DNA of 64,000 bases. It comes from an uncultured delta proteobacterium. Its GTDB lineage: Bacteria; Myxococcota_A; Polyangia; Polyangiales; Polyangiaceae. The position numbers and the translations under genes were made by a program. The notes beneath the pieces were generated by a model, which saw only the letters and a program-made list of their open reading frames with translations, ran no database searches and was not told the DNA's origin. Below are positions 62,372 through 64,000 of the stretch, piece by piece (position 1 is the stretch's first letter; every line of letters begins with the position of its first letter). The stretch covers positions 1,088,001 to 1,152,000 of the forward strand of contig CAWAIF010000003.1 in NCBI GenBank assembly GCA_963782055.1, written 5' to 3'.

Positions 62372-62815
62372 TCAGCGTCGCGCAGCGTCACAGGCGCCGT
62401 CGACGCACACCGCCCGAAAGCTCTCGGCGCTCTCGGTCGGCTTGCAGAGGGCGTCGCACTTCGCGCACTTCACCTTCTTCGTCGCGCACTCGCCGCGCTC
62501 CCGCACGAGATCGACCTTGGTGATCGAGCGTGGCGGCACCGCGCAGCACGCGCAGCAGTCGGGGCTCGCGTTCGTCACGGTGCACTCGTCGTCGCGAGTG
62601 CACTGTCCCCCTCCACCTGGGTGGAGCTCGAGGGATGATGGATGCGGCAGCGGCGCGACCGCGGCGACCGCGGTCGCGGCGTCGACGGTCGCAGCGTCCG
62701 CCGAGCCGATGGATACGCTCATCGGCTCGGCGGGCCTAGGCTGGCACGCGATCAGCGTCGCCGAGAATGCGAGGAGCGAGGCGGGCGTGGCCCCGCTCGC
62801 AAGGCGCCATCTCAA
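62372..62815 (-). CDS. Cys-rich lipoprotein, translationally coupled to the actin-like gene
   Basis: TTG start overlapping the actin TGA (TTGA); LLAFSATLIAC lipobox; 12 Cys in the C-terminal domain (CTRDDEC...CCACC...CVDGAC). Confidence 0.7.
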   Translation of the reverse strand: MRWRLASGATPASLLAFSATLIACQPRPAEPMSVSIGSADAATVDAATAVAAVAPLPHPSSLELHPGGGGQCTRDDECTVTNASPDCCACCAVPPRSITKVDLVRERGECATKKVKCAKCDALCKPTESAESFRAVCVDGACDAARR

Positions 62816-64000
62816 GTGCACTTGTGGAGGACGACCGCCGGTCCCTGCTGCTGGTACTCCGCGCGCGTGATGTACATCGCGTCGAAGGTGCTGAGGCTCG
62901 CGAGGATGGACTCCCCGATGAAGACGGAGTTCGTCGCGTCGGCCGGCTGCACCACCTTTGTCGTCATCGCAGTCGGCGCCAGCGCCTTGACGCCCGCTTG
63001 CAGGCGCGCGCCGAGGCCGCGGTAGTGACCCAGGCGCCCGGCGATCACGATGTTGTTGTAGAGATCCTTCCGGATGTCGACGTCGCACTTCATGATGAAC
63101 TCGTAGACGAGCTTGTGGATCCCCTCCTGCTCCAAGCTGATTAACTGCGGCTCGAAGTACGCCTCCGGCGCCATGAAGCGCTCGGTGCCGACCGTGATGG
63201 TGCGGCCGCTGGAGAGCCGGAACGGACTGGCAGCGTGTTGTTCTTTCCTCGGATTCAGCGCGATGTAGCCGAACGTCTGGTCGAGACGTCGCTGGTCCGT
63301 CTCGTCGTTGGCGGGCACTCCGCGCGGGGCCTCGAGCGCCGACCAGCGCTTCAGGATGTCTGCCTCCCCGATGTCGAGCCTCAGCGCGGCGTGCGGCAAG
63401 GCGTATCCTTCGTAGATCGGCGCGACCCTCGTGATGTCGCGGTCTCCCTCGAGCACGACGCCCGTGGTCCGGCCCGAAGCGTACAGGGCGAGGACGGGCT
63501 CCTGCGCGACGTAGAAGGCCTGGGCACCAACCCCGTTGAAGATCGTGGTGGTCAGCCGCATCCGGACGGCCTTCGAGGTGAACAGTGGCTCGCTGACGAG
63601 GATGCGAGCGTTCGCGGGCGCCACCCCGAGCTTTCCAAGTACGTAGCGTACCAGCTGGCCGAACACTGCGAAGTTCGTGATGACCTGCTTCTGGATGGGG
63701 TACACGAGGCTGAGTTGTGCCCGGCGGGCGAGCGCGTCGTTCCCGAAGGCGACAGCGGTGCCGGAGCCCCTCGGCGCGCCGGCCACCGCCGGCACCACCA
63801 GGCGCGGAGCGGTGTCCCCGCCGATGCCCGCCTGGATCGTGTCGGAGTCGAGGGCCAGGATGACGTTGCGGACGGCGCCGTGCGGCGTCACCGGCCGCGG
63901 GCGCCCGATGGTGTTGGGTGGGAATGTCGGCGCCTGCACGACGGGAGCCGGCCCTGCGGAGGCGACCGCAGGCAGGGCAGTGACAGCGAGGGCGAGCAGG
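62812..64000 (-). CDS. eukaryote-type actin-related protein with N-terminal signal-peptide-like extension (5' partial)
   Basis: Exact actin peptides LYASGRTTG, PIYEGYALPHA, IMKCDVDIRKDLY and SILASLSTF, plus GDxAPR, YPI, ERF, ALAP and terminal KC. The frame is open to the window edge, reading LLALAVTALPAVASA-GPAPVVQAP... Confidence 0.93.
   Translation of the reverse strand, partial: LLALAVTALPAVASAGPAPVVQAPTFPPNTIGRPRPVTPHGAVRNVILALDSDTIQAGIGGDTAPRLVVPAVAGAPRGSGTAVAFGNDALARRAQLSLVYPIQKQVITNFAVFGQLVRYVLGKLGVAPANARILVSEPLFTSKAVRMRLTTTIFNGVGAQAFYVAQEPVLALYASGRTTGVVLEGDRDITRVAPIYEGYALPHAALRLDIGEADILKRWSALEAPRGVPANDETDQRRLDQTFGYIALNPRKEQHAASPFRLSSGRTITVGTERFMAPEAYFEPQLISLEQEGIHKLVYEFIMKCDVDIRKDLYNNIVIAGRLGHYRGLGARLQAGVKALAPTAMTTKVVQPADATNSVFIGESILASLSTFDAMYITRAEYQQQGPAVVLHKCT

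Follow-up and report, generated by a model that had tools for sequence, protein, structure and literature searches.

The window analysed here, a 64,000-nucleotide stretch of contig CAWAIF010000003.1, ends inside a minus-strand gene for a eukaryote-type actin, with a lipoprotein gene directly downstream. The features at the locus are:

62812..64000, minus strand: actin-family ORF, the part within the window of a protein of 415 aa in full (whole-genome ORF, Pfam Actin, AF2 and Foldseek)
62812-62814, minus strand: stop codon TGA of the actin ORF
62372..62821, minus strand: 149-aa lipoprotein gene downstream of actin; its LIAC lipobox is followed by a linker and an 8-Cys domain

The frame had been described as open past the window edge, and the whole-genome sequence bears this out: the ORF encodes 415 aa, its initial ATG lies directly 3' of an in-frame TGA, and 20 codons from the first ATG (M1) or 8 from the second (M13) fall beyond the window end (extended coordinates 64059 and 64023). 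The GTG at 63939, taken as the start in the ORF track, was an effect of the window edge and lacks a Shine-Dalgarno-like sequence, and the C-terminus, previously read as KC, is actually ...HKCT.

The ORF does encode a true member of the actin family. Its product matched the Pfam Actin profile (PF00022) at 234.7 bits (gathering cut-off 27, E 1.9e-69), its overall identity to conventional actins is ~43%, and the best 60 sequence matches in the PDB were all conventional actins (E 3e-80 to 1e-76). The AF2 model (pLDDT 88.5, pTM 0.82; residues 61-415 mostly above 90) is a predicted four-subdomain actin fold; the best Foldseek ranks against G-actin had TMt 0.91-0.94 and rmsd 1.5-2.2 Å, and conventional actin is present in every one of the top 50 entries, mostly as the matched chain (TMt 0.85-0.94). 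These results agree with the sequence-only reading, which saw a protein colinear with eukaryotic actin and closer to true actin than to MreB or MamK. MreB_Mbl scored 18.7 bits, under its cut-off of 27, and the NCBIfam scores for MamK (19.7, cut-off 400), BeeR (24.9, cut-off 530) and MreB (13.7, cut-off 293) were likewise too low, so an actin-like protein of the MreB, ParM or MamK type was rejected. The closest NCBIfam likeness was to syringactin (NF040575, an equivalog), over the C-terminal third only; at 77.7 bits against a cut-off of 300 the protein is not a syringactin member, and the word "syringactin" was not found in the literature searched.

The gene sits among ordinary bacterial genes within a 7,003,164-base contig and has a host-like GC3 of 0.88, as expected from the earlier claim of chromosomal integration with GC3-rich codons. 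No match to it was found in any of 6 same-genus genomes, which fits acquisition or a patchy history, and the protein is the sole member of its clusters at both 90% and 50% identity. Of the horizontal acquisition proposed from the sequence, the part that places a true actin homolog in the chromosome of a bacterium is supported; a donor did not emerge from the trees, in which this protein's branch is very long, at 1.15-1.74 substitutions per site. The 4.2 kb of locus DNA gave only one 48-base match against 5 same-genus genomes, a promoter and terminator scan of the locus (L001, 1600-4500) found nothing, and the upstream 245-aa gene had no match in 5 same-genus genomes, which weighs neither way. 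In a sequencing-run search, only three soil runs contained 5-7% of the sampled words. A soil DNA run yielded three 150-nt contigs on the locus (99-100% identity), two of them inside the actin gene, one of these two spanning its start region; RNA-library contigs mapped only to window positions ~62105-62429, which are neighbouring lipoprotein genes, not actin.

Because the start of the 149-aa lipoprotein gene (GTG at 62821 or TTG at 62815) overlaps the actin stop, the two genes are probably co-transcribed and translationally coupled. The lipoprotein matched no Pfam or NCBIfam family. Relatives of its Cys domain (38-43% identical) occur in 2/5 same-genus genomes, none with an actin match, and it is not a dedicated actin partner; a complex prediction pairing it (Cys domain) with the actin fold (residues 60-415) gave a score of 0.00 (mark 0.32), which weighs neither way. 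No conserved neighbour or partner of the actin gene was found. A nearby actin-binding polyketide cluster was rejected as well, there being no PKS or NRPS domain in the window or the next 8 kb.

Signal peptide and translation start

The N-terminal part of the ORF contains two features:

63955..64000, minus strand: predicted signal-peptide hydrophobic core and c-region, LLALAVTALPAVASA (sequence inspection, AF2)
63877..63954, minus strand: Pro-rich basic linker, GPAPVVQAPTFPPNTIGRPRPVTPHG, aa 36-61, between signal peptide and actin fold

A hydrophobic h-region, an A-x-A site and a Pro-rich linker had been pointed out here, and all three are present, LLALAVTALPAVASA at exactly 63955-63999 and GPAPVVQAPTFPP at exactly 63916-63954. 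That reading would have failed had no n-region lain upstream; just outside the window, the upstream sequence supplies one, MRH (from M13) or MPPPTVRRTGAPMRH (from M1). Since this n-region precedes the hydrophobic core, the ORF encodes a complete Sec-type signal peptide as judged by inspection and textbook rules (a basic n-region, an h-region of 7-15 hydrophobic residues or longer, small side chains at -1 and -3 and a helix-breaking residue near -6). The elements seen are MRH or MPPPTVRRTGAPMRH, LATLALLALAVTALPAV and ASA|GP, with Pro at -6; the core that follows the basic n-region is 17 residues long. Signal peptidase I is predicted to cut at ASA|GP, between 63955 and 63954 (alternatively at AVA|SA); the signal peptide would then comprise 23 aa if translation begins at M13 and 35 aa if it begins at M1, and we infer that the product is cleaved and exported.

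Other export signals were not found. For the Tat route we looked for a TIGR01409 match and for RRxFL directly before a mildly hydrophobic h-region; the actin protein had no TIGR01409 match at E up to 0.1, and after the RR at residues 7-8 comes TGAPMRH instead of a hydrophobic stretch. A lipoprotein signal would place Cys at +1, and no Cys occurs within residues 1-60. In the AF2 model, residues 1-53 are unstructured (pLDDT below 50) apart from an isolated helix at 16-25, and the linker is disordered (pLDDT below 60); GC3 is 0.91 over codons 41-62.

The choice of start codon bears on an alternative in which the protein is a cytoplasmic actin like BARP, either initiated downstream of the hydrophobic stretch or carrying an uncleaved N-terminal anchor as part of a cytoplasmic cytoskeletal element. 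In-frame GTG codons at positions 41 and 57 would allow such a start, ActM is intracellular according to the available portions of its description (PMC3254629), and a signal is missing from most of the bacterial actins identified in this analysis. However, these GTGs, the only downstream starts, lack a Shine-Dalgarno-like sequence, whereas both ATGs, which lie before the hydrophobic core, have one: AGGA 8 nt upstream of M1 and GGAG 5 nt upstream of M13, the latter being the database gene call (P0002). GC3 over codons 13-40 (0.79) fits coding sequence, and the basic-then-hydrophobic N-terminus with its A-x-A site would put the C-terminal domain outside. We consider a cytoplasmic actin distinctly unlikely, also in view of the nucleotide site and D-loop described below.

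Nucleotide site, D-loop and barbed-end face

The actin fold combines four blocks identical to actin with three degenerate nucleotide motifs:

63832..63855, minus strand: degenerate phosphate-1 loop, aa 69-76, ALDSDTIQ (actin D11-K18, DNGSGMxK)
63460..63486, minus strand: LYASGRTTG, actin 142-150, floor of the barbed-end hydrophobic cleft, identical
63427..63450, minus strand: degenerate phosphate-2 loop, aa 204-211, EGDRDITR (actin D154-H161, DSGDGVTH)
63388..63420, minus strand: PIYEGYALPHA, actin 164-174, W-loop, cleft and profilin face, identical
63058..63096, minus strand: IMKCDVDIRKDLY, actin 282-294, profilin face in subdomain 3, identical
63022..63039, minus strand: degenerate adenosine-pocket motif, aa 341-346, GRLGHY (actin G301-F/Y306, GGTTMF/Y)
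62884..62910, minus strand: SILASLSTF, actin 344-352, wall of the barbed-end cleft, identical

All four blocks had been placed exactly by the sequence-only reading. Among the 119 actin matches (P0003-P0121), LYASGRTTG recurs letter for letter in 119, IMKCDVDIRKDLY in 101, PIYEGYALPHA in 49 and SILASLSTF in 45. The degenerate nucleotide site and the shortened D-loop were absent from that reading and are new here.

Using P0084 as the reference for residue numbering (153/375 positions identical overall), we compared the functional sites of actin one by one. Nucleotide and cation contacts, which we take to be D11, G13, S14, G15, K18, Q137, D154-H161, K213, E214, G301-Y306 and K336, were identical at 3/25 positions (S14, R210 and G301 only; hypergeometric P 1.4e-3 for so few), as against 13/13 in the barbed-end hydrophobic cleft (P 6e-6) and 16/21 on the profilin face (P 8e-4), these P values being only indicative because positions differ in background conservation. 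The cleft set is presumed to comprise Y143, A144, G146, T148, E167, G168, Y169, I341, I345, L346, L349, T351 and M355, and the profilin-face set is the one we assume from the actin structural literature. In the phosphate-1 loop the replacements are D11A, N12L, G13D, G15D and K18Q, and the adenosine-pocket change includes G302R. The D-loop (residues 39-51), which makes longitudinal filament contacts in actin, is identical at 2/13 positions and has a 7-residue deletion; two more deletions relative to conventional actin span 3 and 7 residues.

Judged from these residues, the degenerate nucleotide site and shortened D-loop rule out an ordinary polymerising ATP-actin, and a functional protein of that kind was rejected. 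Both ATP binding and polymerisation have presumably been lost, and loss of the ATP pocket would fit an ATP-free compartment. As an internal control, among 12 rows below 50% overall identity a full cleft of 13/13 was reached here alone, with 4-10/13 in the other 11. The segments that line the cleft double as core hinge elements of the fold, and it may be folding, not binding, that conserves them. No second actin was found in this genome, and the face is thus not kept for the sake of a partner actin in the cytoplasm.

Signal-bearing actins in other bacteria

Eight other clearly signal-bearing actins were found, among them one in another Myxococcota genome, where such proteins had been suggested as a thing to look for:

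G354: Myxococcota genome
P0143 (= L033): Crocinitomix sp. MAG protein, annotated 'actin, cytoplasmic 2'
L063: gammaproteobacterial MAG
P0053, P0171, P0196, P0262 and P0264: metagenome proteins

The related-locus search used a 3-sequence alignment (A3), with two peptide patterns that fail to pick up more distant members, for example G354. These actins are 29-39% identical to the present protein (9-sequence alignment A2, L063 left out). P0264 has a twin-arginine-like TRRDVIK with no TIGR01409 match. No neighbouring gene is common to this locus, G354, Crocinitomix and L063.

Nucleotide residues numbered 12/25 or fewer in 9/9 clearly signal-bearing actins (range 3-12) compared to 4/26 signal-less bacterial actins. 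P0053, for example, has 72% overall identity to actin but just 8/25 of these residues; the profilin face is retained in P0053 (20/21), P0143 (19/21) and L063 (19/21). Four signal-less proteins are equally degenerate (L015 with 5, L039 with 7, L007 with 9 and L059 with 12 of 25), and site decay by itself is therefore no proof of export. The signal-bearing actins formed no single supported clade; the 103-row and 47-row quick trees were star-like, with 5-6 starred branches (44-100) that force at least 4 signal origins when P0250 and P0205 are counted as signal-bearing. On the same count, nucleotide-site loss went in the same direction in 3.5/4 independent pairs and never in the opposite one (p 0.125), so that with phylogeny respected the link between signal and site loss is not significant. 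P0250 has no visible signal, and P0205 has an N-terminal membrane-like segment only.

Within the same family as the present genome, three genomes (G160, G406 and G556) each carry an intact, signal-less actin with an adjacent profilin (3/3). Those profilins begin ...DRRAFLGG or ...NRRAFLGG, and two of the three exceed the TIGR01409 cut-off of 16.7 (21.4 and 22.7 bits). No profilin was found by the same search in this genome or in G354. The signal-less actins of the family keep 20-22/25 nucleotide residues, unlike the present protein with 3/25 and a truncated D-loop, which argues further against a cytoplasmic role.

The protein could instead be an exported structural one, assembling independently of nucleotide into a polymer or lattice of its own, either periplasmic or on the cell surface, as an extracytoplasmic cytoskeleton with no foreign target. 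The signal peptide and actin fold are consistent with this, as is the coupling of the gene to one for a membrane lipoprotein; moreover, the barbed-end cleft is the site that receives the neighbouring subunit in F-actin. However, the D-loop that inserts into this cleft is 7 residues shorter here and absent altogether in G354, L063 and P0250, and a gene present in 0/6 same-genus genomes cannot be a core envelope structure. We regard a structural role as unlikely.

A decaying, functionless relic of a transferred actin gene, its hydrophobic N-terminus accidental, would account for the very long branch, the loss of the catalytic site and the want of close relatives in the clusters or among the congeners. 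Against such a relic, all 415 codons of the ORF are intact, its GC3 is host-like and the fold of its product is predicted with confidence. Conservation is also markedly non-uniform between the cleft and the nucleotide site, a pattern that neutral decay does not yield, and 8 further lineages likewise pair a signal with a dead site. This explanation appears very improbable.

Interpretation and comparison with known systems

Actin is the archetypal cytoplasmic, ATP-driven polymer, and its folding usually depends on nucleotide and, in eukaryotic cells, on a chaperonin dedicated to it. With the ATP pocket lost, the partner-binding face kept and an export signal present, we read the protein at this locus as an exported, nucleotide-independent actin mimic that follows a predicted Sec route, and give this reading a probability of about 60%. 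The signal peptide and A-x-A site would direct the pre-protein across the inner membrane, and the mature product would consist of the Pro-rich linker and a full four-subdomain actin fold. That fold would no longer bind or hydrolyse ATP, with other residues at the phosphate-1, phosphate-2 and adenosine-pocket positions (Asp or Arg in place of several glycines), and the shortened D-loop would make canonical F-actin unlikely. What selection would have preserved is the barbed-end face, made up of the hydrophobic cleft that separates subdomain 1 from subdomain 3 together with most of the surface that contacts profilin. By itself, Sec export goes no further than the periplasm; the mimic would act there or outside the cell, probably binding an actin-gripping partner through the barbed-end cleft. 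Its ligand and ecological role, including the predation on or defence against amoebae or fungi suggested from the sequence, are matters of speculation; candidate ligands are an actin-binding protein, a cleft-binding small molecule, or genuine actin set free from eukaryotic prey or grazers and bound at its D-loop or pointed end.

If true, this would be a natural 'dead-enzyme' actin, Sec-routed, folding without ATP and keeping only its partner-binding face, and the first actin used outside the cytoplasm by a bacterium. Its recurrence in unrelated bacteria and the Tat-profilins of its relatives might point to a wider, unrecognised interference of predatory or grazed bacteria with eukaryotic cytoskeletons. 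A more tentative proposal, which we find doubtful as yet, is that bacteria of several phyla have repeatedly acquired eukaryote-type actin (or, in this family, its partner profilin), given it an export signal and let the ATP site decay. These proteins would form an undescribed class of extracytoplasmic 'pseudo-actins', mimics acting on cytoskeleton proteins of prey or grazers by capping filaments or soaking up binders of the profilin, gelsolin or WH2 type, and the present gene would be the Sec-exported, profilin-independent version of its relatives' Tat-profilin system. We found no exported or signal-bearing bacterial actin and no Tat-profilin in the literature, where matches to "profiling" blurred the profilin part of the search. 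Structural biologists would gain from it a nucleotide-free actin scaffold, possibly one that bacteria can express, whose barbed-end groove is intact.

BARP of Haliangium ochraceum, described as intracellular, was reportedly first described by Wu et al. in 2009. Like the present gene, it is a eukaryote-type actin, not an MreB or ParM, on a Myxococcota chromosome; compared by description, not by sequence, the portions of the source available mention no export signal or dead nucleotide site (PMC3035250). ActM of Microcystis aeruginosa PCC 7806 is, in the parts of its description available, likewise a horizontally acquired eukaryote-type actin that departs from eukaryotic properties, but it forms an intracellular shell together with the neighbouring profilin PfnM, whereas here a signal peptide is present and the genome has no detected profilin (PMC3254629). 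The pairs in G160, G406 and G556 share with this locus both the family and an export signal on a component of the actin system. There, however, a Tat signal lies on the profilin and the actin is intact, whereas here a Sec-type signal lies on the actin, the ATP site appears dead and profilin is absent. With conventional actin (Acanthamoeba 4efh, Dictyostelium 1nmd) the protein shares the Pfam family, the predicted fold, the four blocks and the complete cleft, but it has a signal peptide and Pro-rich linker instead of the acidic actin N-terminus. It shares the design of the other signal-bearing bacterial actins, in which an N-terminal signal precedes an actin fold whose nucleotide site is degenerate, and differs in its Pro-rich, basic mature N-terminus, theirs being mostly acidic (QEEED, QDDEN, EEPPEDDDEE).

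Actin gene and its encoded N-terminus

The minus-strand actin frame, open from 62812 to the window edge as the sequence-only reading had noted with exact coordinates throughout, is a 415-aa ORF in the whole genome, its ATG immediately following an in-frame TGA. Pfam scored it at 234.7 bits for Actin (E = 1.9e-69) versus 18.7 bits for MreB_Mbl, which is under the Pfam cut-off, and conventional actins made up all of the best 60 matches in a PDB sequence search, bearing out the placement with true actin and far from MreB. The four actin-identical blocks picked out in that reading were unchanged in 119, 49, 101 and 45 of the 119 actin matches P0003–P0121. 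Using a 45-row alignment, AlphaFold2 gave a model with mean pLDDT of 88.5 (mostly >90 for residues 61–415, <50 for residues 1–53) and pTM of 0.82, which Foldseek matched to G-actin structures with TM scores of 0.91–0.94 and rmsd of 1.5–2.2 Å.

The gene lies on a 7,003,164-base contig of a genome of 7,583,791 bases in 3 contigs (97.16% complete, 0.29% contaminated). Because its GC3 is 0.88 and its neighbours across the 64 kb are ordinary bacterial genes (including infB, rbfA, a Ser/Thr kinase, P450, MMPL and an ECF sigma factor), contamination or a chimeric contig is not a serious option; a 150-nt soil-metagenome contig also spans the start region at 100% identity, and the earlier assignment to a bacterial chromosome stands.

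Two ATG codons are candidate starts: M1, with AGGA 8 nt upstream, and M13, with GGAG 5 nt upstream, at which the public gene prediction P0002 (403 aa) begins. M13 seems somewhat more likely because GC3 is 0.58 in codons 1–12 versus 0.79 in codons 13–40 (about 0.90 further on). Either ATG is followed by a basic n-region, a 17-residue core (LATLALLALAVTALPAV), Pro at −6 and an ASA/GP boundary. The only later starts, GTG41 (63939, the ORF-track start cited in the sequence-only reading) and GTG57, showed no ribosome-binding-like sequence, and the N-terminus had no lipobox and no match to the Tat model TIGR01409. On inspection of the sequence, the gene thus appears to encode a complete Sec-type signal, and the possible lack of an upstream n-region, raised earlier as an objection, does not arise from either ATG. 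A cytoplasmic or anchored actin resembling BARP, to be weighed against this N-terminus, is improbable.

Nucleotide site and barbed-end face

Residues were numbered against P0084, a 375-aa actin that follows the standard residue numbering, to which the protein is identical at 153 of 375 positions. The scored residue sets are what we take to be the contacts described in the actin structural literature.

Residues identical to P0084, by set (hypergeometric P values disregard differing background conservation and are only indicative)
Nucleotide and cation contacts: 3/25 (P = 1.4e-3, for so few)
Barbed-end hydrophobic cleft: 13/13 (P = 6e-6)
Profilin-contact residues: 16/21 (P = 8e-4)
D-loop: 2/13, and 7 residues shorter

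Changes at the nucleotide site include D11A, G13D, G15D, K18Q, Q137E, D154E, G156D, D157R, G158D, H161R, K213D, E214Q, G302R and K336T. The cleft and profilin face are built by the four blocks picked out in the sequence-only reading, which had missed the degenerate nucleotide site and the shortened D-loop. An internal control came from the remaining 11 rows whose overall identity to actin is <50%: in these the cleft was retained at only 4–10/13. Set beside the eroded nucleotide contacts and the complete cleft, a functionless relic is very unlikely; a homopolymer outside the cytoplasm, considered beside the altered D-loop, is slightly less so.

Relatives, profilins and neighbouring genes

The actin was the sole member of its cluster at both 90% and 50% identity, its next matches being actins at 37–44% identity.

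Genomes with an actin match
Same genus: 0/6
Same family, this genome excluded: 8/382
Even phylum sample, this genome excluded: 6/400

At least two of these matches look like eukaryotic contamination: L009 (G180), at a contig end and reading like Arp1/centractin, and L004, which lies on a small contig and shows an in-frame TAG. Searching genome contigs returned 64 loci, many evidently contamination on 0.3- to 2-kb contigs in isolate assemblies; long-contig bacterial actins came from Polyangiaceae, Kofleriaceae, Nannocystis, several cyanobacteria, a Pseudomonas isolate, a Sedimenticolaceae chromosome and others. Conventional actins on dozens of 0.3- to 2-kb low-coverage contigs (L025, L027–L032, L034, L035, L048, L057, L060, L062, L064 and others; isolate assemblies including Devosia marina, Shimia sediminis, Alcanivorax quisquiliarum, Microbacterium arborescens and a Haladaptatus) are almost certainly eukaryotic contamination. 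Matches split into short intron-like ORFs or at MAG contig ends (L049–L055, L085 and L009; a single 418-kb 'bacterium' contig carries both L053 and L054) probably reflect eukaryotic contigs assigned to bacterial bins. One Myxococcota homolog, L007 (G106), has a long acidic N-terminal extension with GEADGK repeats, a degenerate nucleotide site (9/25) and no signal peptide.

Besides the subject gene, eight actins carried a clear N-terminal signal.

Signal-bearing actins
G354: another Myxococcota family, N-terminus MRRLSPLVPPLRCLVLLAAALWSLQPAPTRA/EE...
P0143 (L033, 5920–7113): Crocinitomix MAG
L063: gammaproteobacterial MAG
P0053, P0171, P0196, P0262, P0264: metagenome proteins

All nine kept ≤12 of the 25 nucleotide residues (range 3–12), compared with 4 of 26 signal-less bacterial actins (raw Fisher test 1e-5, on phylogenetically non-independent rows). 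The most telling case is P0053, with 72% overall identity to actin, cleft 13/13, profilin face 20/21 and nucleotide site 8/25. In a tree built without nucleotide columns, starred branches forced at least four signal origins, and loss ran in the same direction in 3.5 of 4 independent pairs and never in the opposite one (p = 0.125, too few pairs), both counts including the doubtful P0250 and P0205 as signal-bearing. The trees were otherwise star-like, the subject actin sitting on a long branch (1.15–1.74) and grouping weakly with other signal-bearing rows (SH-aLRT 87–91).

Separately, P0264 (421 aa) begins MPYTRRDVIKTLGLG... with a twin-arginine-like motif, TRRDVIK, and did not match TIGR01409. 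In L063 (5878–6960) the D-loop is lost along with much the greater part of subdomain 2, yet the profilin face stands at 19/21. The curated NCBIfam model syringactin (NF040575) was the best NCBIfam match for 4/4 signal-bearing actins tested, at 77.7–115 bits (cut-off 300); the word was not found in the literature searched.

In three same-family genomes, an intact signal-less actin gene had a profilin 0.6–0.8 kb away (3/3).

Profilins (PF00235, cut-off 25 bits), each with a twin-arginine N-terminus
G160: L092 1315–1836, 38.9 bits
G406: L091 1294–1815, 40.3 bits
G556: L093 1306–1797, 30.2 bits

Their N-termini read M(T/A)TIDRRAFLGGAAA... or MSDPNRRAFLGGAA..., with the motif ..DRRAFLGG.. or ..NRRAFLGG.., and TIGR01409 scored above cut-off in two of the three. 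These Tat-type profilins may be a second, independent pointer to export. Since profilin adjoins the signal-less actins but was not found by the same search in the subject genome or G354, the phylum appears to hold two layouts: intact actin with Tat-tagged profilin, and Sec-tagged, ATP-site-dead actin without profilin.

Next downstream of the subject actin is a lipoprotein gene.

62372–62821, minus strand: 149-aa lipoprotein, GTG or TTG start overlapping the actin stop

It has a lipobox (LIAC), an Ala/Pro-rich linker and a domain with 8 invariant Cys, and matched no Pfam or NCBIfam family. Because relatives of this domain occur in 2/5 same-genus genomes (once in tandem) that had no actin match, it is not a dedicated actin partner. 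The 245-aa gene upstream had no family and no match in congeners. Elsewhere, the G354 actin adjoins a gene for a 2523-aa beta-helix protein, and the L063 actin follows apparent tryptophan-synthesis genes (trpA) and precedes apparent accD, judged from neighbours' N-terminal sequences. The L033 actin (72-kb contig), annotated 'actin, cytoplasmic 2', has a phage-type integrase and an HTH gene upstream, and its flanking genes encode a lipoprotein and a T9SS-sorted (Por_Secre_tail) protein; the locus resembles a mobile island coding for secreted proteins. No neighbour was common to these four loci.

Convergent on the lipoprotein gene is a small Cys-rich lipoprotein of no family (MKALILIGLLAAVAAAC..., 62031–62306, plus strand), a stretch matched by soil metatranscriptome contigs at 98–100% identity. 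Just downstream of the actin operon, an ECF sigma factor and then a 361-aa protein whose N-terminus resembles a signal stand in a run of lipoproteins and proteins predicted to be secreted (PD40 beta-propeller, BNR/Asp-box; 55913–57601 and 53005–55119, minus strand; 60669–61670, plus strand).

Proposed role and known bacterial actins

The most likely account is a nucleotide-independent actin mimic. The actin fold would be exported via Sec, would need no nucleotide and form no canonical filaments, and would have been kept for its barbed-end face, acting either in the periplasm or extracellularly. We put the probability that the protein is exported and nucleotide-independent at about 0.6–0.7. That it works through binding via the cleft is a tentative prediction, a little short of even, and a eukaryotic actin or actin-binding protein as ligand is a rather unlikely one. 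Neither a signal-bearing bacterial actin nor a Tat-profilin was found described in the full-text literature searched. BARP was reportedly first described by Wu et al. in 2009. Bacterial actins already on record include BARP (PMC3035250), Uab actin (PMC6906331) and ActM, with PfnM (PMC3254629).
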